Positions 3,084 to 60,370 of a stretch of DNA of 64,000 nucleotides are shown here, one piece after another. The notes beneath the pieces were generated by a model, which saw only the letters and a list, made by a program, of their open reading frames with translations, was not told where the DNA came from and did no database searches. The stretch lies in the IMG/VR virus record IMGVR_UViG_3300027793_000063, positions 1 through 64,000 of that record; one strand, written 5' to 3'. A program made the translations under genes and the position numbers. Position 1 is the stretch's first letter. Each line of letters opens with the position of its first letter. The stretch is from a virus. Lineage: Duplodnaviria; Caudoviricetes.

Positions 3084-3662
3084 TTACTTTTTGTCGTGCA
3101 TGATCAGCAGCTCCCCGTGACGCTCGTATGGCGTCCACTGGTAGTTCTCCGGCAGCTTGCCGCTCAGCTTCGTCAGCGCCCCGTACCACGTCTCGCCGAT
3201 GTCCGTGTGCGCCCGCAGCGCCCGGTAGAACGTCGGCAGGCCGGCGCGGTAGCCACGCCACACCCTGGTCGGATGCCAGAAGCCGGCGCTGCCGCGTCGC
3301 AGGATGGGGCCCAGGCACTCCAGCAGCTCCTCATGCGTCAGGTCGTTGCCCTTGTTGTCGTCGCCCCAGATGAACAGCCGCTCCGGGTAGAACGTGGAGG
3401 ACTCGTTGTCGCGACCGATCAGCGGCCGCCCGTTGCGCATCCCTTCCGAGAGGAACGCGTAGTGATGCTCCTTGGCGTCGTCGTCGACCCGCCACCCGTA
3501 GGGCGTGGCGATGCCGGCCGCGATGCGATCGGGCCTGCCCTTGATGGGGAACACGTGGTCGCCCTGGGATGTCGTCACGCCTTCGGTCGGCATGTCCGGC
3601 GACAGGTTGTACATGGACTGCATGAAGCCCCACATGGCTCCGCTGAGATGAATTGCTTTCAT
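3084..3662 (-). CDS. hypothetical protein
   Basis: 192-aa ORF, ATGA overlap. Confidence 0.65.
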   Translation of the reverse strand: MKAIHLSGAMWGFMQSMYNLSPDMPTEGVTTSQGDHVFPIKGRPDRIAAGIATPYGWRVDDDAKEHHYAFLSEGMRNGRPLIGRDNESSTFYPERLFIWGDDNKGNDLTHEELLECLGPILRRGSAGFWHPTRVWRGYRAGLPTFYRALRAHTDIGETWYGALTKLSGKLPENYQWTPYERHGELLIMHDKK

Positions 3663-4558
3663 TGCTGTGCTGTTGGGTTGTCGAGTTCGCGTTCACGTTT
3701 GCGCAAGATCTTCCGCAACTTGAGAAACGCTTCGTTTTGGATCTGCCTGGTGCGCTCCCGTGTGAGGCCAACCTTTGTCCCAACCTCATCGAGCGAGAAT
3801 CCATCAGCACGCATCCGTATTATGAGACGTGCGCGCGCGTCGAGTTCGGACAGGCTCTCCTCCAGCAATTCCAGCGCTACAGGCTCCCGATACTCCTCCG
3901 CTGCTACGTCTCTGGCGGCGCGCAGCGGGCGGGCGAATGTGAGCGGTTCTTCCGGGAGTTCGCCTGACACGATGCGTGTATGAGTTCTGATGCGTTCCTG
4001 AGCGCGGTCTGGGGTCAGTCGTCCATCGGGACAGCATTCGCGACAGATGAACATACCAACACGCTGGCTCTTTCCGCCGCTCTGGCCCTTGCTGCGGGGT
4101 CCGTGGATGATGACTCCGTTCTTGACCGGCATTCCAGTCGCGCGCACCTCGCAATAAGCGCACTTGCGACCACTATTTGCTGGAGGCCTGCCTTCAGCGA
4201 TGCGCTTTTCGCGGCGTCTTGCGGCTGCAGCCCGGCCGCGCTCGGACTGGTTGTATAGACGCGTGTGCTCGGGGTTTCGTTTACCGTTGATCCTGGAAGG
4301 TACGCCGTATTTCAACTGTTGGCGCATTCCCGCATTTGGATACTTCTTGCAGTAATACCAGCGCTGATATGCGGGATTCCGCCTGCCGTCGACCATGCAG
4401 GGAGGAGCACCTTCGGCGCGTGGCTTGCGAGGTTCGACTCCGAGGACATTACGAGCATACCAGACATGGTAGGCTGGATTACTGCGCCCATCTGGAAGCC
4501 TGCTTTTCGGTTTCTCGTTAGCTGCGTTCGTGCTCATGTCTGACGTTGATGTGATCAT
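3659..4558 (-). CDS. DNA-binding protein with C-terminal sigma70 region-4 HTH, Zn finger and N-terminal repeats
   Basis: LDARARLIIRMR..GFSLDEVGTKVGLTRERTRQIQNEAFLKLR; CAYC/CREC; three (D/N)G..NP repeats. Confidence 0.75.
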   Translation of the reverse strand: MITSTSDMSTNAANEKPKSRLPDGRSNPAYHVWYARNVLGVEPRKPRAEGAPPCMVDGRRNPAYQRWYYCKKYPNAGMRQQLKYGVPSRINGKRNPEHTRLYNQSERGRAAAARRREKRIAEGRPPANSGRKCAYCEVRATGMPVKNGVIIHGPRSKGQSGGKSQRVGMFICRECCPDGRLTPDRAQERIRTHTRIVSGELPEEPLTFARPLRAARDVAAEEYREPVALELLEESLSELDARARLIIRMRADGFSLDEVGTKVGLTRERTRQIQNEAFLKLRKILRKRERELDNPTAQQ

Positions 4559-26018: not shown

Positions 26019-26278
26019 TCTGGTTCGATTTGTTGTGCACCCGGAATCGGGGTCAGTTGATCCCGGGCGAATGCGAGTTGCTCCTCCTTGGTGCTGATGC
26101 TGGATCCCTGCCAGAGATCGCAGAAGCTGAGATACTCCAGCCCGATGTGCGTCACGCCGTCGTTGCGCCGCGTCGGTGTCCACCGATAGAACATTTGCGG
26201 TGTCTGCCCGGTCGGGTCACCCGGCCACGGCAGATACATTTGCGCGCCGCGGGTCGCCGCCGCTTGCTGCGCGGTCAC
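26015..26278 (-). CDS. hypothetical protein
   Basis: GTGA-coupled to the ligase stop. Confidence 0.5.
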   Translation of the reverse strand: MTAQQAAATRGAQMYLPWPGDPTGQTPQMFYRWTPTRRNDGVTHIGLEYLSFCDLWQGSSISTKEEQLAFARDQLTPIPGAQQIEPE

Positions 26279-28812
26279 AGCATCGCCCGCGCTTCGGCCT
26301 CCGTGAGAATCCGCACGCCGGCGTCCTGCGCCTTCTTGAGCTTGCTGCCGCAGTCCTCCCCGGCGATCAGGAAGTCCGTCTTCTTGGACACCGAGCCGCT
26401 GAGCTTGGCGCCGGCCTTCTCCAGCTCCGCCTCCATCACGTGACGGGGCACGCTGATTGTGCCGGTGAGCACGACCGTCTTGCCTTTGAACAGGCTGTCG
26501 CCAGCCGCCGGCTCTGCCTTGACGGGTTCCGGCGCGTAGTTGTCCGACTTCACGGTGTCCGGGATGAGCGACAGGACACGCCTGCCTTCAGTGCCGTTGA
26601 CGAAGTTCACCAGCGCCATCAGCGAGACCGGTCCCAGGTGGTGACTGATCTCGTATTGCTTCTTGATGATATCGAACTCCGGCGTGGAACTGACAGCTGG
26701 GTAGCCCACCATCCGACGGAAGAAGCCGACGGAAGATGTGCACTCCTCGACGAGATGCAGGACGTCTCTGCACAGCCGGCTAATCTCCTTCGACGTGTTC
26801 TTGCCGATGGTGTGGATCCCCAGCGCGGCAATCCAGTTCCGCAACGGCAGTTTCTCCGCCGCCCGCATGGCTTTATGCAGCGTCTCCGCTCTGGATTCGC
26901 CGAAGGTCATCTTGCCGCCAGACTCCGTGGTCCACGACAGATTGGCGAACCATGATGCGGGAACCTTGAACAGGTCGAACGGATGCTGGAAATTGTCGAT
27001 CTCCAGCGGCGCGCGGAACGCGATCTCCGCGCACAGCTCAGTGCCCATCTGGGACAGGTTCAGGCAGTCGCGACTGGCCATGTGCTCGATGCGGGCCGCC
27101 ATCTGGGCCTTGCAGCCGGCGGTGTTGGTGCACATCCAGACCGAGGCTGCTTTGGCGGTCGACTTACCCACCGACTGTGCCGCCCTCATGACTACTGCTT
27201 GCTCGATGCTCGTGCTTCCGCAGCTCGGGCACTTGCCGCCGATATGATCGGGGAGGTTGAACTGCGGACGTCCTAGATCGTCACCGCCGTAAGCCGCAGC
27301 GAAGTTCGCCACGCGCGCGACTCGCATCTGCTCGCGAGTCGGATCGTCTCCAAACATCCTCCGCGCGGTGTCGACTGTGTTTTTGCTTGCGGCGACTCGC
27401 ACGATCTCCGGGATCACAGCACCAGCCTTGCGGACGATGACCCGGTCGCCCACGGCCAGCCCCAAGCGATTCACCTGGTCCTCGTTGTGCAGCGTGGCGC
27501 GCGAGACGACGCTGCCGTCCACCTCGACCGGTTCCAGCTCTGCCACGGGCGTCAGGACGCCGCTGCGGCCCACCTGGACGGTGATGGCCTTCAGCGTGGT
27601 CTCGACCTCATCCTGCTTGAACTTGAAGGCGATGGCCCACCGCGGCGCCCGGGATGTGCTGCCGAGGTGCTCGCGCAGCTTGTAGTCGTTGACCTTGAGC
27701 ACGACGCCGTCAGTCGGATATGGCTGATCGGCGATCTCCTTCAGCCGGAGCCACGAGATCACCTCGCCCGTCGCTCGGTGGCTGCCGTCCGCAAGGAGGT
27801 AGACCGCCGGTGCGAACTTGAGCCCCAGCGATTGCAACCACTCCGCGTCGTCGCCGTAACAGTCGGACAACGTGTCGGAGGCGATGCCGTGTGCGATGAA
27901 CGACAGCCCCTGTCCGGCCACCTCCGCGGGATTCTTGCGCCGCAGGATGCCGGCCGCTGCGTTGCGCGGGTTGGAGTAGACCTCCTCGCCCGCCGCCTTC
28001 TGCCGTTCGTTGAGTGCCTCGAAGTCGGCGAAGGTCATGAAGACCTCCCCGTTGATTTCGACCGGCTCGCACTGCAGCTCCAGCGGCACCAGCTTGGCCA
28101 TCATCACGTTGAGCGTGACGTCATCCCCGGTCTCGCCGTCGCCGCGGGTGACCGCCTTCGTCAGATGTATGTGTTCCGACTGCCCGATGCGCGCGTAGGT
28201 CAGGCGCAGGCTCAGCCCGTCGATCTTCGGCTCGGCGACGAGCGCGCAGCCTTTGCAGGCCTCGTCTCCGTTCAGCTTCGCCAGCCACTTGGTCAGCTCA
28301 TCGATGTTGCCGTCGTCCCCGGCGAAGACGTTGTCCAGCGACTGCATCGGGCAGCTGTGCTTCACCTTGGCGAACCCGGACTGCGGATGCGGGGCCGCTC
28401 CCACTTTGTCCAGGATGGTGTCGCGCCACACCGGGTCGTCCGTCTCGTGGGCATCGTCGGCGCGTGCGTCCTGGTGTTCCCGCCAGAGCGCGTCGTATTC
28501 GGAGTCGCGCATGATGGCGTTGCCGTTCATGTATGCCTCGTTGGCGACGCGAAGCTTCTGCTCGCGCTCTGCGTTGTTCAGTTTTGTGGTCGTTGTCATG
28601 ATTTTGATGATGTGGAGTTTGTCGAGGGCCTCGTCAGACCATGTGCGTCCGAAGGTTCGGACTGCTATCTCAGGGCTCATTTCTGGCCAGAGTGAATACC
28701 CCGTTTCGTTCATGTCCGCGTCGAAGTAGTAGACGATCGTGCCGCTCGACCTCCTTCCTGAGAAGGTGGAGATGCTGCGCAAGTGCTCGTCGGTGCAGGG
28801 ATGGCTGGTCAT
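26275..28812 (-). CDS. ligA: NAD-dependent DNA ligase (alternative start 28599)
   Basis: EPKIDG, NPRNAAAG, DGVVLK, PRWAIAFKF, ATLHN, Zn finger, HhH, C-terminal BRCT (GSVSKKTDFLIAGE). Confidence 0.95.
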   Translation of the reverse strand: MTSHPCTDEHLRSISTFSGRRSSGTIVYYFDADMNETGYSLWPEMSPEIAVRTFGRTWSDEALDKLHIIKIMTTTTKLNNAEREQKLRVANEAYMNGNAIMRDSEYDALWREHQDARADDAHETDDPVWRDTILDKVGAAPHPQSGFAKVKHSCPMQSLDNVFAGDDGNIDELTKWLAKLNGDEACKGCALVAEPKIDGLSLRLTYARIGQSEHIHLTKAVTRGDGETGDDVTLNVMMAKLVPLELQCEPVEINGEVFMTFADFEALNERQKAAGEEVYSNPRNAAAGILRRKNPAEVAGQGLSFIAHGIASDTLSDCYGDDAEWLQSLGLKFAPAVYLLADGSHRATGEVISWLRLKEIADQPYPTDGVVLKVNDYKLREHLGSTSRAPRWAIAFKFKQDEVETTLKAITVQVGRSGVLTPVAELEPVEVDGSVVSRATLHNEDQVNRLGLAVGDRVIVRKAGAVIPEIVRVAASKNTVDTARRMFGDDPTREQMRVARVANFAAAYGGDDLGRPQFNLPDHIGGKCPSCGSTSIEQAVVMRAAQSVGKSTAKAASVWMCTNTAGCKAQMAARIEHMASRDCLNLSQMGTELCAEIAFRAPLEIDNFQHPFDLFKVPASWFANLSWTTESGGKMTFGESRAETLHKAMRAAEKLPLRNWIAALGIHTIGKNTSKEISRLCRDVLHLVEECTSSVGFFRRMVGYPAVSSTPEFDIIKKQYEISHHLGPVSLMALVNFVNGTEGRRVLSLIPDTVKSDNYAPEPVKAEPAAGDSLFKGKTVVLTGTISVPRHVMEAELEKAGAKLSGSVSKKTDFLIAGEDCGSKLKKAQDAGVRILTEAEARAML

Positions 28813-29342
28813 CCTTGGACCTCCAGCTCTTGCACGTAGACGAACATCGGCTGCGGCCCGACGTAGCCTGCGATGTCGAATCCTCCCTGCCGATGCGTGT
28901 GCGGTTCGTATTTCCTGGGGCCGTCGTAGTAGTTCACCGGCTTGGTGAACTCCTTCACGAGCCTGTCGGCCACCTCCTGCGTGGCAGCAACCTGCATCTC
29001 CCAGCATCGACCGAGCCGGTAGCCGTCGTAATCCACCTTCATGACGACGAAGACCTTCGAGGCTCTGCGCATCGCTTTACGGCAAACCTTGTAGACATCC
29101 GAATTCTGCGCTGCGGCTGCGGCCAGTAGAAACTGATCCCACTTCAAGCCGGCGAGACCAAGCGCCACGGCCAGTTTGGCTGCGGCTTTTTGCCCGACCG
29201 GGCGTCGAGCGTTCTCGATGTTCGAGATGAAGCTGTGCGGAATCCCCGATTTCTCAGCCAGCGCCCGAAGACTCAAACCCGCATCACTTCGCCGCGCACG
29301 GAGAATGGAAGCGAGGATCGCTGGGGCAGACTCACGCTTCAT
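28809..29342 (-). CDS. XRE-family HTH regulator
   Basis: RRSDAGLSLRALAEKSGIPHSFISNIENARR. Confidence 0.8.
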   Translation of the reverse strand: MKRESAPAILASILRARRSDAGLSLRALAEKSGIPHSFISNIENARRPVGQKAAAKLAVALGLAGLKWDQFLLAAAAAQNSDVYKVCRKAMRRASKVFVVMKVDYDGYRLGRCWEMQVAATQEVADRLVKEFTKPVNYYDGPRKYEPHTHRQGGFDIAGYVGPQPMFVYVQELEVQG

Positions 29343-35785: not shown

Positions 35786-36018
35786 GCCACATCCTCCGCA
35801 GGGCGCGGCGATACCAGCGTCCAGTCTCGCAGGATGCTCTTGCACGACTTGACGAAAGCCATCGGCGCAAATCTCGGGTCGTCGGCATACCGATAGTAGC
35901 AAACAGCCAAGCCTTCGTCGATGTAGACGATACGGATTGTCGTGTTAGGATTGTTGTCGTCCGGGTTGCGATATCGCTGTCCGACGACGACTTCGGACGG
36001 CGCTTCCGTTTGTTTCAT
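35782..36018 (-). CDS. hypothetical protein
   Basis: Coupled ORF. Confidence 0.5.
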   Translation of the reverse strand: MKQTEAPSEVVVGQRYRNPDDNNPNTTIRIVYIDEGLAVCYYRYADDPRFAPMAFVKSCKSILRDWTLVSPRPAEDVA

Positions 36019-38129
36019 TTGTAGATGTGTTCAACTTTTGGCCACACGTTGGAGTTCTGCGAATACCACGCCAAGCCGAGGGCTCGAGACACGCCGCGGC
36101 TGACACTGTTTCCGATGGCCCTAATGATCTCAGTCTTTGTGCAATGGCTCCATTTCATATCGTCTGGAAAGCCCATCGCGCGCTGCAGCTCCAGTGGCGT
36201 CAGCATGCGATAGAACAGGTCGATCTTGATCAGCTTCCCGTCCAGTTCGATCACCGGGTAGACCAGGGCGTGCCCGGCCTTGGTGCGCACGGTCGGCAGC
36301 GGCTCGTCGATCGACTTCCCCTCCGAGCCGTTGCTGTAGTAGACGTAGATCCACGGCTTGGCGTCGACCTTGCCCCGGCGCTTCAGCTCCGCCACCAGAT
36401 GGTTGAGGAACGTGGTGGCGCGCGAGGTGTCCACGCCCTTCTCGCTGCACGCGTGAAGGAACCGGTCTGACACCACCTCGAGCTCGACCTCGATGCAGGT
36501 CTGGCTCGCCTTGGTCACGATTGTGCGGACCGGGGCGTCGACCGGGTAGGTCCCGTCGTTGCCCCTGGCGCCGCCTGTCTGGTCGATGGCGAACATGAAC
36601 GCCTCGGCGATGGCCTGGTGGCTGCCGCCGGCCGTGGAGGTGCGCAATGGATCGTCCACGCTCTTGCAGACGCCGGTGCCGCGCTGGTTGTCCGGCATGG
36701 CGATCTCGGGCTGCATCACGTAGTGCCCTTGGGACGTCGTAAGCGACGTCAGGGGGCTGTCGATGCTCTGAGCGGTGCTCTGACCCTTCAGCTGGACGAT
36801 CGACGGCTCCACGAGGCCCTCACCGGTCATGGTGGTGGTCACCGTGCTAACCGGTGTGTCGACGCCCTTCACCCAGTCCTTTTTGCTGCCGGCATGGTGC
36901 GGGATGATGTAGGCCTCTGACCTCACGACGCCGCCGGCGCCGTGGCTCGTAACCGTGGGTACCGGGTCGTCCACGCTGTGCGTCCTGGGCTCTTGGCCTG
37001 GGGCTTCGCCGAAGTTCGGCGTGATGAATTCCCCTTCAGCCTTCACCAGTCCGCGCTCACCCTTTGCGGTGAACGTCTGGAGCGGCTGGTCCACGTCGTG
37101 CACACGACGATCACAGTCCGACGCCTTCGGGCTGCCATGAGCCGAGCTGATCAGGAACTCGCGCAGTCCGTATTTCACCAACCCGATGGCCAGGCGGCGG
37201 AACGTATTGTCAGCGAGGTTTTTGTTCCTCGTAAACACGCTCAGGCCCTTCAACTCCCACTGAATGACGCTGGTCCGAGCGGTACGCCAGTCCATCGGAC
37301 GCCCGTGCCCGGTGCCGCGCTCCCCGGCGTAGGGGTCCGGCCAGACGATCTTCTTACCTGAATCCTTGCGGACGAAGTAGACGAACAGCCTCTGGCGGAT
37401 GGTGGGGTCACCGTAGTCAGCGGACTTGAGGACGCGGTAGTCGGACTCGTATCCCAGCGCCTGCATCTCGGCGATCCATGCCTGGAAGTATTCGCCGCGG
37501 CGCTCCTTGTCCGGCACCTCGTAGGGTTGGTAGCCGGCAGCCTTCATGCGCTTGCCCCAGTCTGTCTCGGTCTCTTTCGCCCGTCGGCGCTCCTTTTTCC
37601 GCAACTTTACTGGTCGGCCCTTCCGAGCCCACATGAGTTCGTCCACGATTGGTGGACCCGCCTTCTCCGGCCAACGCTTCTGGATCACAGGGCCATAGGT
37701 CAGAAATTCTCTCACGTTCTCACATATCACAGCTTCAGGACGCAAGTGGCGCACCCAATCGACTACGCTGAAGGCGTGACTTCTGCCTTGCTCAGTCACG
37801 CAGGTTGCTCCCCTGGCCACGCTGAAATGAACGCAGCTCGGACTAGCCCAAAGCAGGCTGCAATTTGTACCGTGCGGAAACACAGCGACCGGATCTAACA
37901 AAAACAGATCCTCCATGATATGCCGGTGCTCAGGGTGGTTAGCTTGGTGAATCTCAATAGCCTTGTCCCAGTGATTGACGAATGTTCCGCGCACGTCGCG
38001 TTGCAGTATGACGTTGGCATCGAGCAGGCCACCACCTGAACCACCACAGCCGCAGTAGAGGTCAACTAGGTTATCACGCCGATCGTCAACTTGCCTCTCT
38101 GACAGCACTATCAGATTGTTTTCTCGCAC
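36015..38129 (-). CDS. C5-cytosine DNA methyltransferase
   Basis: DLYCGCGG (I), ASPSC (IV), ENV (VI), RQR (VIII), RAMGFP (IX), IGNSV (X). Confidence 0.92.
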   Translation of the reverse strand: MRENNLIVLSERQVDDRRDNLVDLYCGCGGSGGGLLDANVILQRDVRGTFVNHWDKAIEIHQANHPEHRHIMEDLFLLDPVAVFPHGTNCSLLWASPSCVHFSVARGATCVTEQGRSHAFSVVDWVRHLRPEAVICENVREFLTYGPVIQKRWPEKAGPPIVDELMWARKGRPVKLRKKERRRAKETETDWGKRMKAAGYQPYEVPDKERRGEYFQAWIAEMQALGYESDYRVLKSADYGDPTIRQRLFVYFVRKDSGKKIVWPDPYAGERGTGHGRPMDWRTARTSVIQWELKGLSVFTRNKNLADNTFRRLAIGLVKYGLREFLISSAHGSPKASDCDRRVHDVDQPLQTFTAKGERGLVKAEGEFITPNFGEAPGQEPRTHSVDDPVPTVTSHGAGGVVRSEAYIIPHHAGSKKDWVKGVDTPVSTVTTTMTGEGLVEPSIVQLKGQSTAQSIDSPLTSLTTSQGHYVMQPEIAMPDNQRGTGVCKSVDDPLRTSTAGGSHQAIAEAFMFAIDQTGGARGNDGTYPVDAPVRTIVTKASQTCIEVELEVVSDRFLHACSEKGVDTSRATTFLNHLVAELKRRGKVDAKPWIYVYYSNGSEGKSIDEPLPTVRTKAGHALVYPVIELDGKLIKIDLFYRMLTPLELQRAMGFPDDMKWSHCTKTEIIRAIGNSVSRGVSRALGLAWYSQNSNVWPKVEHIYK

Positions 38130-51986: not shown

Positions 51987-53048
51987 TCAGTATAGTTGTT
52001 GGTGTTTGATATCCCACAGTTCTTGGTATCGCTGCCGCACAGTGCTCTCGTCGAGGTAAGGACTCTCCCACTCGTAGAACGCGCAGATCGACCGGCGCAT
52101 CTCTGCGAGCTTCCTACTCTCCTCCGCGGTCGGCACGCAGTGCGGCCAGCCCTTGGTGAACTGCAGATGCTTGGGCACCCAGCCCTGCGCTTTGTTCCGA
52201 TGTGCTGCCAGACTCTGCGCGGTGCCCAATCGTTCGAGCCCATTCGGGACCAGGTCCGGCGCCAGCGACGTGAGCCAGCGGCTGCCCTGGAACGCGAAGC
52301 CGCTCGCCAGTTCGAGGTCGCACATCCGGACGTAGATCGCCGCGGCGGCCGGGTCCTTCAGGCTGGCGCGCAGGTCCGCCTCGTTGGCGAGGATGCAGAA
52401 CCGACACGACACGCGGGATGACCCGAACAGCGAGTATGCCTCATGGGGTTTGATGCCTGACGCGGCAATCTCCGCCCACACGTCTTCCTCCGTCCAGTGA
52501 TGAATAGGGCGCCATGCTAGGCTGCCGGGCGGAAGCTTGGCAACAGGCGCGCAGACGGGCTGCTTGGAGCGTGCAGCGCTCTCCTCCCCGCGCACGCCGG
52601 TGACGTTGAGCACCGGAACCTTGCCGAAGCGTCGCTTGATCAGGGAGGTGATGGGAGCGACCTTCAGCTCTGACTGACAAAAGCGCATGGCCGGCGTGCT
52701 CCACGGCAGCACGACAGTCACAGTCTCCATCGCGCAGTAGCGACGCTTGGAAGACGCCCACCTAGACTCCCAGCGCTCCATCATGCCCCCGGCTGGGCGC
52801 GTGCAGGATGCCAGTTCCCACCCCGTGCGCTCAGCGATGCGCTGGCAGCTAGGCCAAGAGTCGAGCCACTCGGTGGATCCCAAATCTGCATGCAGAAGCA
52901 GCTTCGGGCCGGCGTAGTCGAGAAGAGCCTGAGACACTGCCCAGGCGACGGCCGTGGAATCCTTTCCGCCGGAAAGGCCGATCACCACAGGAGCCTGCGC
53001 GTTCAGCAGGCGTTGCACTTCGGGAGGTATCAGGATGTTTCTGCTCAT
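51987..53048 (-). CDS. PAPS reductase-like (PP-loop) protein
   Basis: SGGKDS, GVRGEESAAR, RPIHHW, RVSCRFC. Confidence 0.88.
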   Translation of the reverse strand: MSRNILIPPEVQRLLNAQAPVVIGLSGGKDSTAVAWAVSQALLDYAGPKLLLHADLGSTEWLDSWPSCQRIAERTGWELASCTRPAGGMMERWESRWASSKRRYCAMETVTVVLPWSTPAMRFCQSELKVAPITSLIKRRFGKVPVLNVTGVRGEESAARSKQPVCAPVAKLPPGSLAWRPIHHWTEEDVWAEIAASGIKPHEAYSLFGSSRVSCRFCILANEADLRASLKDPAAAAIYVRMCDLELASGFAFQGSRWLTSLAPDLVPNGLERLGTAQSLAAHRNKAQGWVPKHLQFTKGWPHCVPTAEESRKLAEMRRSICAFYEWESPYLDESTVRQRYQELWDIKHQQLY

Positions 53049-55187: not shown

Positions 55188-55673
55188 TTAAACCGGCTTG
55201 CCGGACTGTAATAGAGTGATGCCCCGCAGATGATCGTGCTCGTGCTGAAACACACGGGCCGGCAGACCTGTCAGCTTCTTGTCCGTGATCTTGTGCCCCT
55301 GCTCGTTGGTCCAGGACGCCAGGATGACGTATTCGCGTTCGACGTTGAACTGCCGTCCGGGTAGGGACAAGCAGCCTTCGACGTCGGTGACCTTGACCGA
55401 CTTGGGCCCGGGGCGCCAACTCGGGTTGACGCACAGATGCGCGACGCTCGAATTGACGTTACCAGCGGACGTGACCCTGGCACTCGCCGCGAGGAAGAAG
55501 AAATTCTCCCGCAGGCCGACCTGGTTCGCGGCGATGCCGCATGCGGACTTCTCACGGGCGAGCCGCATCAGGTCCGGGCGGTAAGCGCGTATTGCCGCTG
55601 GGTCCGACTGGATGCCTGTGAGATCCTCGTTGAGAATGTTATCGCGCGTGTTGATCAGTTTTATGGTTAGCAT
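55188..55673 (-). CDS. def: peptide deformylase
   Basis: CGIAANQVG, EGCLSLP, QHEHDHLRG. Confidence 0.93.
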   Translation of the reverse strand: MLTIKLINTRDNILNEDLTGIQSDPAAIRAYRPDLMRLAREKSACGIAANQVGLRENFFFLAASARVTSAGNVNSSVAHLCVNPSWRPGPKSVKVTDVEGCLSLPGRQFNVEREYVILASWTNEQGHKITDKKLTGLPARVFQHEHDHLRGITLLQSGKPV

Positions 55674-55682
55674 GGGTACAGC

Positions 55683-55714
55683 AAAAGGCGTCCACGTGTA
55701 CACGTGGACGCCTT
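55683..55714 (-). terminator. intrinsic terminator / 30-bp perfect palindrome
   Basis: aaggcgtccacgtgtacacgtggacgcctt followed by a T run on the minus strand. Confidence 0.7.
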
Positions 55715-56274: not shown

Positions 56275-58188
56275 CTATTTCTGCATGACGTCCGCCAGCG
56301 GCACACGCCCAGCGAGGACGTCCTCGAGCTGCTGCTTCGTCAGTCCCAGCATCGTGCGTGCGGCGTCCTCCATCGCTGGATTGAGGATGGGCCGCGGCAG
56401 ACGAATGCGGCCCCACCGCTCCCCATTCAGCAGCCGGTTGTCGAAAAGGCCACCGGGGATCGGTGTCAGGTCGCGAAGATTCACCATCTCGCCGTTTTCG
56501 ACGTCGATCGGATCGCGCTCGTCCAGGTCGCCGTCCGTGAATGGCGCGAGGCGATACTTGCCCTTGCCGGAGTTGCGCGTGTTGATGCCGGCGCCCGCCA
56601 GCAGCGCGCGGAACTTGTGCCAGACAAACGGCTCGCCGATCTTTGGCAGCGTCTTGTCCGTGCGCAGTGCCATCCAGAAGTCGTGATTCTTCTGCCCGCG
56701 GATTGTGGCATTCTCCCGCATCAGCGAGTAGGCCCCGCTGGACAGTGTTGCAAAATTCTCGAGACCCGAGAAGCGCTTGGCCTGCGCGAATTCGCCGCCG
56801 CCGCGCGTCGGCTGCTGATTTTGGTCATAACTGCCTGTGCCACGGGCACTTACCTTCCCTTCACTTGTATGGTGCAGCTTGTGCACGAAGCCGTAACCCA
56901 CCGTCACCGGCGCGTCCAGCATCCGGCCTTCCTCCGGATCGTAGACCATCTCCTGTGACTGCACGCCGTTCTCGCGTTCCAGCTGGTCAATGTAGTCGTT
57001 CCAGTTCTGCCCTTTCGGCAGGTAGCTGGGCAGCTTCAGCGCGCGCCCCAGCTTCTTGGCAACCTTGCCGAGCCGCAGTTCGTGCTGTGACGCCGGGTTC
57101 GCCCGGGAGACTAGGGACAGCGGATTGAGCAGCGCATCCAGCGGCTGTCCGTCCTCCGTCCGCGGCATCTGGTCGTCGGGAATGATCTTCGAGACGGTCG
57201 CCTTGGCGCCCTGCCGCAGCACGATCTTGTCTCCGACTTCCGTCGGCTTTAGAAATTTCAGGACTACCTTGTAGCCGTTCTTGGTCGCGCGCGCGGCGAT
57301 GACCTGGGCCGGCTGCTGTCCGTGCCACACCTGAGCGGCGTCGCGGCGCTGCTGCCTCAGCGCCTTGCTGAGGCGCCCGATGTTTGCGCCGTCTGACGAC
57401 AGCGTGCGAGGCATCGTCGCGAGCATGACGGGGTCACCAGGCTCCAGCACGGTGCCAGGTCGCACCAGCCCGTGTTCGTCAAAATTTTCCAGCTTCTCCT
57501 TGGTGAAGCGGTTCGGGAAGAGGGCGCGGTAGTGGCTGAGACCTGTCTTCAGATTGTCCGAGCGGTCCTGGTGCATCACCTTGTATTGGACGGCGGACAG
57601 GCGCTTGGCGAACGACTCGCTGACAGGCATGGCGTCGTCCATTCCGAAGCCCTTGAATGGCACCAGAGCGATGCGGGCGTTCAGCCCCATGTTTTGCACG
57701 CCGTTGTCGTCCGTGTAGGACGATGCTGCCATCATCTGCCCGGGTTTGAAGGTGTCACCTTTCTTGAGCAGTGCACGAGAGGAAATTCCCGATTTCTGAT
57801 TGAAATACTGCTCGTTGTATAGGTCGACGTCCGCCGTCTCGCCGTCATCGTAGGAGACGCGGATGTAATCCGGCGTGACGCTGATGACGCGCCCGGCGCG
57901 CTTGGCGCGGACGGCGCCCATGTTCTCGCCGACGATTTCGTCAAAGCTGCGCCCTTCGGGGTCGGACGTGTCCAAGTTCTGGATCAGCGGAGCTTCGCCC
58001 TTGTCGATCGCCAGCGCCTGGTTCGCGAACCGCGCGCCGTAGAACAGCCGCGGCGCTTGCACTGCGCCGGCCAGCGGAATCATGTTGGTGTGCGACCCAA
58101 ACTGCTGCGAGGGCGAGGACAGCTCGTAATCGACATCCGGATCGTCATCCGGCACCTCTTCGAGGCGGTTGTTGCGTACGACGTGCAT
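56275..58188 (-). CDS. phage multisubunit RNA polymerase subunit: beta C-terminal half fused to beta' N-terminus
   Basis: IPL...R...GA...QA; GDK...GAK; LNPLSLVSRAN; KLHH...SARGTGSY; then GGLFD...WGRIRLPRP (beta' start). Confidence 0.9.
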   Translation of the reverse strand: MHVVRNNRLEEVPDDDPDVDYELSSPSQQFGSHTNMIPLAGAVQAPRLFYGARFANQALAIDKGEAPLIQNLDTSDPEGRSFDEIVGENMGAVRAKRAGRVISVTPDYIRVSYDDGETADVDLYNEQYFNQKSGISSRALLKKGDTFKPGQMMAASSYTDDNGVQNMGLNARIALVPFKGFGMDDAMPVSESFAKRLSAVQYKVMHQDRSDNLKTGLSHYRALFPNRFTKEKLENFDEHGLVRPGTVLEPGDPVMLATMPRTLSSDGANIGRLSKALRQQRRDAAQVWHGQQPAQVIAARATKNGYKVVLKFLKPTEVGDKIVLRQGAKATVSKIIPDDQMPRTEDGQPLDALLNPLSLVSRANPASQHELRLGKVAKKLGRALKLPSYLPKGQNWNDYIDQLERENGVQSQEMVYDPEEGRMLDAPVTVGYGFVHKLHHTSEGKVSARGTGSYDQNQQPTRGGGEFAQAKRFSGLENFATLSSGAYSLMRENATIRGQKNHDFWMALRTDKTLPKIGEPFVWHKFRALLAGAGINTRNSGKGKYRLAPFTDGDLDERDPIDVENGEMVNLRDLTPIPGGLFDNRLLNGERWGRIRLPRPILNPAMEDAARTMLGLTKQQLEDVLAGRVPLADVMQK

Positions 58189-58191
58189 GCG

Positions 58192-60294
58192 CTAGGACTG
58201 AGCCGCGGCGAGTCGCGGATCGGTTGTGATCTGGTTGCCGTAGATCTGACTGATGATCCCCATCCGATCGGGTGAGTTTACCATGTCGGACTCGCGCATG
58301 TAGCGCGGTGGCTGAGGCGTAGTGAGACGCTTCTTCAGCATCCAATCGAACATCGTGTCTCCAAGCGCTCCGTAGGATGCGCGATAGAGTCCAAGCCGCG
58401 GAAACAGCGCGTTGGCGCCGGCGTGATTGTTGAGCATCTGCCCTGATTCGGGCGCGAGATGCCGGAAAGGCTTCGGCGCGGTCCGTCCGGTCTCCGGGTC
58501 GATCGAGCCGGGCACACCGGCGGTGCCAGTGATGTAACTATCGTTGCCGTTGACCTGCAGACGCCCAGGCGCGGGCGGTCCTGTCATTGGCGGCGGCGGA
58601 CTTGCGACTTCGGGCGGCTCAGGCGGCATGCCGGTGGTGTAGCTCTGCCCGTTGACCTGCAGGCGCCCAGGCGCGGCCGTCTTGATTTGACCGACACGCT
58701 TCTGCAGCCGATCGATGCGGTTGCCGATCAGCCGTCCGGCGATCGTGTTCTCGCTGGCGCTCGCGGACGCCGCGCCGTCCGCCTGGGCCTTGCCCATCGC
58801 GGCCGTCATTTTCGCCTGCTCCTTCTGCACTGCGGACGTGGCCTTTGCCTGCTCCTTCTGCAGTGCAGCCGTGGCCTTTGCCGTCTCGAGCTGCAGTTTC
58901 AGCACTTCTTTTTCCTGCTGCTGCTTGCCCAGCTCCTGCTGAAAGCGCTGCTCCTGCTCCATCTGCGCCTGCATGGCTGCCTGCTCCGTCTGGCCCTGCT
59001 GCTGTGCAGCGGCCTGCTCGGCCTGCATGGCTTTTTGTTCGGCCTGCATCACCGCAGGGTTTGCGGCAGGCGGTGGCGTGATGGAGTTGGCAGTCGCCTG
59101 CTGCTGATTCTGCATCCGCAGCGCCGGGTTCTGTCCGAGCTGCGGCGGCACTGGGACGGCGCCAGCCGGCGCAGGCGCTGGTCCTAGCGCATACTTGGTG
59201 AGTTCGGCGACGAGACCCACCAGCGACGCAGCGGACTTCTCCACAGGCTGCGGCTGCTTCTCGTTGCGATGCTTCGTGCGCGCGCGAGTTTCCGTACGCA
59301 GGCGGCGGCGTGTATCGCGCCCCAGGTTCTGGATGAGCCGGTTCGAAAGTTGCAGGTCACCGATGGGCAGCTTGATCTGCGTCTCGATGTCGCCGGGATG
59401 AGCGGTCGGCAGCGTGACGCTGGCGGTTCCTGCTGCCTCCAGTGCAAGGCGCTTCTGCTCCAGGTCGCTTTTCTGTTTCGCCTTGTAGAGCAGAATGCCC
59501 AACGCGCCCAGGCCGAGCCCGCCGGCCCCCAACCAGACTTCCTTCGGGATGGATTTGATCGGGTTCTCGGCTGGCGGTTTCGCGCGGTCGTGTGCAAAGG
59601 ATTTCGCCGCCTCGGTCGCCGCGTTGTCGACGTTGTAGAGAGTGCCGACTCCTTTCATCGCGAGATCTTTGGTCGGCGCGAGCGCGATAGCACCGAGCCC
59701 GGTGAGGACGTTCTTGCTAGCGATCTGATGTCCGCCGACGGCCCCGAGCAGGGCGTTCAGCCCGCCCATCAGCGTGCGCTCCTTGTCCCACTTCCACGGT
59801 TGGAAGGTGCTGCCGATCGGACGCTTCGTGTCGGCCGCCTGGTCGAAGAACGCGGTCGTGCCGAGTGCTCCGAGAACGCTGCCCAGCGCCTGGATTTTGG
59901 CGTTCGCACACTTCTCGACGACCTCGATGTTCAGACTGCGCGCCAGGGCCCTGGACGGCGAGTTGTGCCGCATGATCATGGCCTTCACGTCATCGCAATG
60001 ATCGCGGACTTCCCGGATGACCTGTGCGACGGCCGACTTCGCGAAGCCGCGCTCGCGGTATGCCGGCAGAATGCCGACCGCGTAGTATCCGACTTTTTTT
60101 TCGCCCTCGTCGAACTTCTGCCAGCCGACAAAACCCACCGGGTCCGCGGTGGCAGATTCTTTCACGAGATACAGCCCGCCGTTGAACTGATTGGTCTTCA
60201 GTCCGTGCGGCCAGTAGGACGGATCCTCGTGCAGGATTCGACTCATGATGCCTTCGACGATGGGCAGCTCGGAGGCCGCGGCAACTTTGATCAT
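58192..60294 (-). CDS. GNAT-domain, Q/A-rich putative virion protein
   Basis: VGILPAYRERGFA...HNSPSRALARSL (GNAT), Gly-rich hydrophobic segments, coiled coil, KxA motifs. Confidence 0.65.
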   Translation of the reverse strand: MIKVAAASELPIVEGIMSRILHEDPSYWPHGLKTNQFNGGLYLVKESATADPVGFVGWQKFDEGEKKVGYYAVGILPAYRERGFAKSAVAQVIREVRDHCDDVKAMIMRHNSPSRALARSLNIEVVEKCANAKIQALGSVLGALGTTAFFDQAADTKRPIGSTFQPWKWDKERTLMGGLNALLGAVGGHQIASKNVLTGLGAIALAPTKDLAMKGVGTLYNVDNAATEAAKSFAHDRAKPPAENPIKSIPKEVWLGAGGLGLGALGILLYKAKQKSDLEQKRLALEAAGTASVTLPTAHPGDIETQIKLPIGDLQLSNRLIQNLGRDTRRRLRTETRARTKHRNEKQPQPVEKSAASLVGLVAELTKYALGPAPAPAGAVPVPPQLGQNPALRMQNQQQATANSITPPPAANPAVMQAEQKAMQAEQAAAQQQGQTEQAAMQAQMEQEQRFQQELGKQQQEKEVLKLQLETAKATAALQKEQAKATSAVQKEQAKMTAAMGKAQADGAASASASENTIAGRLIGNRIDRLQKRVGQIKTAAPGRLQVNGQSYTTGMPPEPPEVASPPPPMTGPPAPGRLQVNGNDSYITGTAGVPGSIDPETGRTAPKPFRHLAPESGQMLNNHAGANALFPRLGLYRASYGALGDTMFDWMLKKRLTTPQPPRYMRESDMVNSPDRMGIISQIYGNQITTDPRLAAAQS

Positions 60295-60325
60295 GCGGAA
60301 TGCTACCGCACTTTCCGTCGCAGGT

Positions 60326-60370
60326 AAAGAGGAAGCAGCCGCCGCCACCGGTGAGGGTGGCGGCGGCTGC
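60326..60370 (-). terminator. intrinsic terminator
   Basis: 15-bp stem GCAGCCGCCGCCACC/GGTGGCGGCGGCTGC followed by TTCCTCTTT. Confidence 0.7.

Follow-up and report, generated by a model that had tools for sequence, protein, structure and literature searches.

The window analysed here, i.e. the whole stretch of 64,000 nucleotides, covers positions 1 to 64,000 of a virus record of 126,971 bases (IMG/VR record IMGVR_UViG_3300027793_000063, Caudoviricetes), rated 68% complete. An open reading frame (ORF) on its minus strand encodes a protein of 637 amino acids (aa), which is very probably one of four polypeptides composing the core of a phage multisubunit RNA polymerase (RNAP) of the bacterial type: the C-terminal half of beta is followed, in the same chain, by the first ~90 residues of beta-prime, from which the zinc-binding domain has been deleted. 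This last segment is indicated in the following as the tail. The coordinates of the gene, of its parts and of related genes are reported in Table 1.

Table 1. The putative polymerase gene, its parts and related genes. Positions refer to the window, unless the record is named.
Feature	Position	Strand	Basis or note
Whole ORF, putative RNAP subunit (beta C-half and beta-prime N-terminal segment)	56275-58188	minus	637 aa and stop, translation table 11
Residues 1-545, C-terminal half of beta, from the Rpb2_6 domain to the natural beta C-terminus	56554-58188	minus	Pfam, PDB, Foldseek
GDKIVLRQGAK (residues 319-329), active-site lysines K321 and K329	57202-57234	minus	motif position, family alignment
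KLHHTSEGKVSAR (residues 437-449), motif of the beta C-terminal region	56842-56880	minus	aligned to the bacterial KLHH..ARSTG segment
Fusion junction, FRALLAGAGINTRNSGKGK (residues 526-544, beta end) to YRLAPFTD (residues 545-552, putative beta-prime start)	56533-56613	minus	frame without stop
Residues 546-637, putative beta-prime N-terminal segment (tail)	56278-56553	minus	Rpb1_1 profile positions ~5-95, by transitive mapping
NRLLNGE (residues 584-590), site of the cellular Cys4 zinc-binding domain	56419-56439	minus	skipped segment in colinear alignment
299-aa ORF with sigma-70 region 4	3659-4558	minus	Pfam Sigma70_r4, E 8.1e-11
Beta N-half, 945 aa	record 71090-73927	minus	weak Rpb2_3 and phrog_24349 matches

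The protein is no whole beta, since the N-half is encoded by a separate gene. Pfam Rpb2_6 (PF00562) matches residues 125-463 (E 3.9e-45; 155 bits, versus a cut-off of 23.4), and phrog_24349, a PHROGs family with no assigned function, is matched along its positions 608-1099, out of 1191 (E 1.3e-49). When the whole protein is compared with PDB sequences by phmmer, the best 60 of 80 matches are exclusively beta or Rpb2-type chains: residues 6-528 align, along positions 646-1171, with a beta chain of 1266 residues (E 2.9e-45); in E. coli beta, positions 1208-1295 pair with residues 411-498. From the extent of these alignments, beta homology ends near residue 545. An earlier note, made from the sequence only, had placed the start of the ORF near a beta motif and had recognized both active-site lysines and a KLHH..SAR motif: all are found where it put them, the first as MIPLAGAVQAPRLFYGARFANQA at residues 36-58, the last as KLHHTSEGKVSAR. 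Among 43 aligned family members, residues D320, K321, R325, G327 and K329 are invariant. With the same 43 members as input, AlphaFold2 (AF2) produced a model with a mean predicted local distance difference test score (pLDDT) of 77.2. A Foldseek search with the full-length model recovered beta chains alone (best E 3e-38) and carries no information on the tail.

The tail was searched as a profile, A1, built from 16 tails and run against 177,635 distinct PDB sequences. At E<=10, 39 matches were obtained, 36 of which are beta-prime or cyanobacterial gamma chains, all aligned at their extreme N-terminus (chain residues ~10-63). In the best match (E 0.0087) profile positions 24-61 pair with residues 13-50 of Thermus beta-prime; a second colinear piece pairs positions 59-100 with residues 83-128. 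Thermus residues 51-82, which contain the zinc-binding segment with its cysteines, fall in the gap between the two pieces and have no counterpart in the tail. When A1 is aligned by hhalign to the first 250 residues of Salmonella beta-prime, residues 551-588 fall on 26-63 (P 2.7e-4, probability 42%). The C-terminal ~90 aa do, as claimed in the earlier note, align to beta-prime, and their likeness to its N-terminus exceeds chance, the scores being marginal but position-specific. The absence of the Cys4 domain, also claimed, is confirmed: between the GLF and RMGHI-like motifs, where cellular beta-prime has a domain of ~30-40 residues, the tail features seven, none of them Cys. No cysteine is present in the entire 637-aa protein. 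The region includes NLRDLTPIPGGLFDNRLLNGERWGRIRLPRP at residues 570-600 (window 56389-56481), and the conserved part of the tail stops ~10 residues ahead of the stop codon.

Relatives in which the same segment lies inside a longer chain provide stronger evidence than the tail tested alone, and settle the matter. By tblastn, 22 of 50,697 phage records are matched by the 637-aa protein. In four of them (Salmonella phage Arash; Vibrio phages D69, D181 and D148) the match, at ~30% identity, extends over 80% or more of the query and comprises the tail. It falls, in Arash (OQ632216.1), within gp206, a 1525-aa protein annotated as beta subunit and, in D69 (OZ195729.1), within a 1527-aa hypothetical protein with the same layout. 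The colinearity with gp206 extends over residues 483-1112 (E 1e-87, 30% identity, 97% of the query); tail residues 532-636 map onto 1006-1112, and the aligned Arash segment is also devoid of Cys. Pfam domains follow each other along gp206 in the order Rpb2_2, Rpb2_3, Rpb2_6, Rpb1_1 (1022-1260, profile 11-261) and Rpb1_2 (1363-1456), while Rpb1_4 and Rpb1_5 are carried by gp216. Beyond residue ~1144, gp206 aligns with E. coli beta-prime 177-521 (E 2e-46), and a weak colinear piece sets 1028-1061 on beta-prime 30-63. The best PDB matches to the beta-prime part are cyanobacterial gamma chains, which end near the end of gp206.

P0181 is a relative of 2064 aa in which all parts are fused: here a single Rpb1_1 stretch spans residues 988-1195 (profile 5-252; 45.6 bits, above the 39.7 cut-off), and the homology to the tail, at 988-1079, starts exactly where Rpb1_1 starts. 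As fused relatives carry the homologous segment continuous with Rpb1_1 and Rpb1_2, the tail represents the initial portion of Rpb1_1. The run without stops from beta into the beta-prime N-terminus, another point of the earlier note, holds both within the ORF, which proceeds in frame from FRALLAGAGINTRNSGKGK to the tail, and by colinearity with gp206 and P0181. The domain scan suggested there was positive for Rpb2_6; for Rpb1_1 it succeeded on the fused P0181 and not on the isolated tail. P0181 and three other metagenomic proteins, P0213, P0173 and P0169 (2064-2876 aa), are one-chain cores, where beta, the junction, and the catalytic and C-terminal halves of beta-prime follow each other.

As anticipated in the earlier note, the remaining pieces are placed beyond the window. 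Further along the record is the beta N-half, whose product aligns to gp206 270-422 and 416-469, on the two sides of an insertion of ~340 residues. It is the sole further polymerase piece found by Pfam and PHROG among 20 large ORFs of the record, which features one Rpb2_6 match. Searches of the whole record for Rpb1_1 and Rpb1_2 gave no match, and a six-frame search for DxDGD-type motifs found no catalytic beta-prime gene, the one DGDGD detected, in a 267-codon frame, being spurious. The incompleteness of the record accounts for the missing gene, which is present in both complete relatives examined, G001 (184,016 bases, with terminal repeats) and G002 (200,158 bases), whose proteins are 99% and 84% identical, respectively, to the 637-aa protein. 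Each of them contains one Rpb1_2-bearing and one Rpb1_5-bearing gene, separate from each other; in G001, for which the positions were worked out, these genes, for the beta-prime middle piece and the C-terminal one, are tens of kb away. When placed on G001, the window's record has its left end ~1.1 kb short of the DxDGD-bearing gene: by synteny, this gene is predicted to start ~1.1 kb past that end.

In the complete relatives, the gene for the middle part of beta-prime has its own start codon and begins just where the tail ends. In G002 it encodes 383 aa, including NADFDGD, which align to gp206 1148-1524 (E 3e-49), with an Rpb1_1 match beginning at profile position 182. Gp206 is tiled by the beta N-half, ending at 469, the 637-aa protein and the 383-aa one; about 13 residues are left uncovered at the first cut and about 35 at the second. 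The G001 counterpart (L015:4250-7384, plus strand) is longer, 1044 aa, because of a LAGLIDADG/intein-splicing element inserted directly after NADFDGD; the first residue of this element is apparently Glu, not Cys, Ser or Ala. Rpb2_6 is present in one copy each in G001, G002 and Arash, and no homologue of alpha (PF01000, PF01193) was detected in any of the three.

A 68% complete record without other beta-prime genes, in a family where mobile elements (inteins) are frequent in the polymerase genes, might also contain the broken remnant of an Arash-like fused gene, produced by pseudogenization, recent insertion or an assembly artefact, and encoding no working subunit. This is highly improbable: the same protein end is shared by 64 clusters (90% identity) and, among the 150 best representatives (50% identity), by 32, the stop context VMQK* is identical in three genomes, and a separate middle gene, starting where the tail ends, is found in complete relatives. 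Furthermore, the tail is under purifying selection, as the catalytic part is: the ratio of nonsynonymous to synonymous substitution rates (dN/dS) is 0.10 for the tail and 0.12 for the beta part when compared with G002; 0.107 and 0.051, respectively, when compared with G001.

The 64 clusters mentioned above come from a word-based search, where they were selected out of 1026 candidates as sharing the tail, at 46-99% identity; most of them are 637-646 aa long, while some reach ~1000 aa and include intein domains. An exhaustive search with the tail profile retrieved 977 representative clusters at E<=0.001, 537 of them at E<=1e-10. The 150 best representatives, clustered at 50% identity, were mapped with five reference pieces. 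The Arash type (beta N-half, beta C-half, tail and middle piece) accounts for 43, one of them with a partial beta C-half match, and the window's type, where the protein ends after the tail, for 32. Beta C-half, tail and middle piece are found in 28; a partial beta C-half is followed by tail and middle piece in 19 and by tail and protein end in 9. Six representatives carry the C-terminal piece of beta-prime in addition to one of these architectures, six are fragments with the tail only, three have tail and middle piece with no beta C-half match, and four are of other types.

The C-terminal end of beta lies directly ahead of the tail in 138 of the 150. Of the others, nine begin within 40 residues of the tail; three are left, and in two of these beta is in fact present before it. 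P0184, one of the three proteins described as tail and middle piece, has the final residues of beta at its start. Among these representatives practically no break is seen at the beta/beta-prime junction, while other sites are cut repeatedly. The loss of the zinc-binding domain is equally widespread: 147 of the 150 tails contain no Cys, and in 133 the spacing from GLFD to W, where the domain would be placed, is 8-12 residues. P0141 (1634 aa) features, exactly at the missing site, an insertion of ~440 residues (~247-687) with 14 cysteines, which may represent either an intein or a domain that was regained.

A tree was built by FastTree, with midpoint rooting, from 638 profile columns and 110 sequences: the window, G002, Arash and D69 were added to 106 representatives whose beta C-half is full, and the 44 partial representatives were excluded. 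As hmmalign could not span inteins, leaving 41 of the 110 sequences with low coverage, stitched hmmsearch domain alignments were used. One clade of 39 leaves collects 32 of the 34 window-type sequences, together with seven where the tail is continuous with the middle piece; an inner clade of 29 leaves has a support of 0.986. Arash-type sequences are scattered over deeper branches. By parsimony, six changes are needed for the continuity between tail and middle piece. Going beyond the earlier note, the arrangement seems to be a derived state of an Arash-like fused gene: fusion would come first and fission later, with fission after the tail occurring, or being reversed, more than once. Because of midpoint rooting and weak nodes, this order is provisional.

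A number of results weigh against the proposed reading. When the tail is tested by itself, Pfam finds no family at E<=10 on the 121-aa C-terminal piece, and a single-sequence phmmer search of the 111-aa tail against PDB returns no beta-prime chain, only three weak unrelated matches; direct profile scores are marginal (E 0.009 for A1; 42% for hhalign). AF2 confidence in the tail is moderate in the full model, with means of 62-79 over blocks of 10 residues, and low when the tail is modelled alone (mean pLDDT 67.5). With the latter model, Foldseek finds nothing in PDB at E<=0.001: the best match has E 1.3, and a few beta-prime or A' chains appear at E 3.5-6. The Rpb1_1 match on gp206, at 29.4 bits, is under the 39.7 cut-off. 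Both other beta-prime genes are absent from the window's own record, so that the four-piece set is documented in relatives alone. The node of the 39-leaf clade has a support of 0.37, and the order of events is not firmly established. Of the checks proposed in the earlier note, phylogeny recovered the clade with this weak key node, structure prediction gave no significant fold match for the tail, and the search for partner genes on the contig was successful for the beta N-half, not for the DxDGD-bearing beta-prime gene.

The poor performance of the isolated tail in Pfam, phmmer, profile and fold searches would be equally compatible with a lineage-specific C-terminal extension of beta, resembling the beta-prime N-terminus by chance. 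This explanation has been largely refuted, and little credit is left to it: matches predominantly to beta-prime and gamma chains, colinear and at the correct N-terminal position, are not accounted for by a chance extension, nor is the unbroken continuation of the segment into Rpb1_1 and Rpb1_2 in fused relatives, with one above-threshold Rpb1_1 match covering it.

The frequency of inteins suggests still another explanation for the separation of tail and middle piece: a split intein could rejoin them by protein trans-splicing, restoring the Arash architecture in the mature protein. Elements homologous to the insertion of the beta N-half are found elsewhere in the family, at no less than five sites in the beta C-half and at two sites in the middle piece of relatives, marking these genes as an intein hotspot. 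The insertion itself (about residues 554-896) is intein-like and falls inside a conserved DP..PE/S motif. Yet the chain continues for only ~10 residues after the conserved tail, and homology in the middle piece sets in after ~7: intein halves of the usual sizes would find no room there, and no intein Pfam match is found on either the 637-aa or the 383-aa protein. With termini so short, trans-splicing is barely conceivable and was dropped.

With the 637-aa protein as a combined beta and beta-prime subunit, the following picture may be drawn. The ancestor would be an Arash-like gene, in which beta continued, without change of frame, into the half of beta-prime that is N-terminal and catalytic. 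A first cut would have occurred within beta, ~20 residues ahead of the IPF/L..ANR motif; a second in beta-prime, after the tail, at positions corresponding to ~140-180 of E. coli beta-prime. Along this interval, where E. coli proceeds from ~140 to ~177-180, Thermus numbering leaps from ~128-139 to ~453-455: the presence there of a lineage-specific insertion of ~300 residues in Thermus beta-prime suggests that the cut falls at a permissive surface site. The enzyme would be assembled from four proteins: the beta N-half (945 aa, with intein), the 637-aa protein, the middle part of beta-prime (~383 aa, with NADFDGD) and its C-terminal part (~630 aa). Within such an enzyme, the 637-aa subunit would supply the catalytic double-psi barrel of beta, with K321 and K329, the flap-homologous region and the beta C-terminal part of the clamp. 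In the clamp of cellular enzymes, the beta C-terminus has the initial ~90 residues of beta-prime packed against it, and the zinc-binding domain of these enzymes sits at the RNA exit channel and upstream DNA. The C-terminal end of beta and the N-terminal end of beta-prime, both parts of the clamp, would here be provided as one covalent unit. Both the assembly of the four pieces and their activity are inferred from homology.

Assembly would take place without alpha, and initiation would probably be directed by phage sigma-like factors. One candidate for such a role with the window's polymerase is the 299-aa protein with sigma-70 region 4. Upstream of region 4 it features a CxxC ... CxxCC pattern, possibly a zinc ribbon, and its gene is kept in G001, next to the position matching the record end. 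In Arash, Sigma70_r2 is present in gp196. Mass spectrometry of Arash virions is reported to have revealed gp206, gp216 and a sigma-like protein (PMC10585845); by analogy, the window's polymerase may also be packaged.

Arash and D69 belong to the same polymerase clade and share the in-frame passage from beta to beta-prime and the absence of the zinc-binding domain; in Arash, as in the window's lineage, the C-terminal half of beta-prime is a separate gene and sigma-like genes are present. The difference lies in the distribution of the remaining parts: in Arash and D69 a single chain of ~1525 aa runs from beta across the junction and through the catalytic half of beta-prime, while three genes, far apart, encode these parts in the window's lineage. 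Gp206 and gp216 are treated simply as beta and beta-prime, respectively, in the Arash paper (PMC10585845).

The earlier note had considered the architecture as distinct from that of phiKZ/AR9-type phages, and this view is retained, within the limits of the review text available on the latter. Their enzymes are also of the beta/beta-prime type, lack alpha and omega and have beta divided into N- and C-terminal pieces. Beta, however, is cut at other sites, and beta-prime only after the catalytic barrel, not near the N-terminus; a fusion of beta to beta-prime is not described. They feature two paralogous sets, virion and non-virion, and no sigma homologues, whereas the window's lineage has one set and the window carries a Sigma70_r4 ORF. 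The window's polymerase is also much closer in sequence to bacterial enzymes.

The beta C-terminus is tied to the beta-prime N-terminus in the natural rpoBC fusions of Helicobacter and Wolbachia, and in an engineered E. coli fusion: the two ends are adjacent, and the tether is tolerated. These fusions are full-length, keep the zinc-binding domain and depend on alpha; unlike the window's lineage, they are not known to be cut again downstream. Precedents for the fission of large subunits are the cyanobacterial gamma/beta-prime and the archaeal B''/B' and A'/A'' splits, none of which leaves the beta-prime N-terminus on the beta chain. In the portions available of reviews on split RNAPs, no counterpart was found of a cut at ~140-180 of E. 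coli beta-prime.

Metagenomic Caudovirales of the mReC group (PMC7481178), whose RNAP is deep-branching, possibly belong to the same broad clade, with beta and beta-prime sufficiently similar to the cellular ones for COG hidden Markov models to find them. In the mReC screen each subunit had to reach 800 aa or more, and the beta-prime match had to contain NADxDGD (PMC7481178); split forms would therefore be excluded. Fusion is mentioned, in the portions of the main text available, for crAss-like phages only (PMC7481178). A literature search, partial for the texts and not covering supplements, found no account of a subunit composed of the beta C-half and the beta-prime N-terminus, or of variable partitioning. 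Large RNAP subunits are already known to be split and fused: what is new is a real, well-conserved variant of such rearrangements.

The sites where the large subunits are cut or joined show which parts of RNAP fold and assemble on their own. In the window's lineage the tether between beta and beta-prime is kept, and beta-prime is cut ~90 residues further on, at a site unused in cellular or phiKZ-type enzymes. This is a natural experiment on how the clamp is assembled, on assembly independent of alpha and on what the zinc-binding domain does at the RNA exit channel. There is also a consequence for annotation: screens demanding long beta and beta-prime proteins miss or mislabel such enzymes, as indicated by gp206, labelled as beta only, and by the hypothetical protein of D69.

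A more general proposal is advanced as a tentative one. In a very large clade of phage polymerases without alpha or zinc finger, whose architectures range from four genes to a single beta/beta-prime chain of ~2000-3000 aa, the link between the beta C-terminus and the beta-prime N-terminus might be the one obligatory join, the rest being subject to cuts, fusions and intein invasion with hardly any restriction. The fused clamp module (the beta C-terminal end and beta-prime ~15-145) could then act as a single nucleus of folding and assembly, replacing assembly assisted by the alpha dimer. The window's enzyme might represent an extreme case, with the module detached from the rest of beta-prime. 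Were the invariant tether truly an assembly principle of enzymes without alpha, the finding would matter more. More boldly, another protein may provide the lost zinc-binding domain in trans: one example would be the sigma-like protein encoded at 3659-4558, through its CxxC...CxxCC segment.

The polymerase gene is preceded by a 718-aa ORF (58192-60348, minus), which ends three bases before its start; an N-terminal GNAT domain (Acetyltransf_1, E 1.6e-7) is followed there by a long Q/A/P-rich region without family match. Downstream are small ORFs and a peptide deformylase gene (55188-55703, minus; Pfam E 3.5e-27); a 353-aa protein with a PAPS-reductase-type domain is also encoded nearby (51987-53048, minus; E 5e-9). 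Elsewhere in the window, on the minus strand, are the genes for an NAD-dependent DNA ligase of 910 aa, extended by ~200 residues at the N-terminus (26275-29007), and for a 704-aa C-5 cytosine DNA methyltransferase (36015-38129). Further along the record (83825-87556, i.e. L003:3825-7556, minus), a 1243-aa family A DNA polymerase carries, in one chain, a 3'-5' exonuclease domain and, at the N-terminus, one of the uracil-DNA-glycosylase superfamily.

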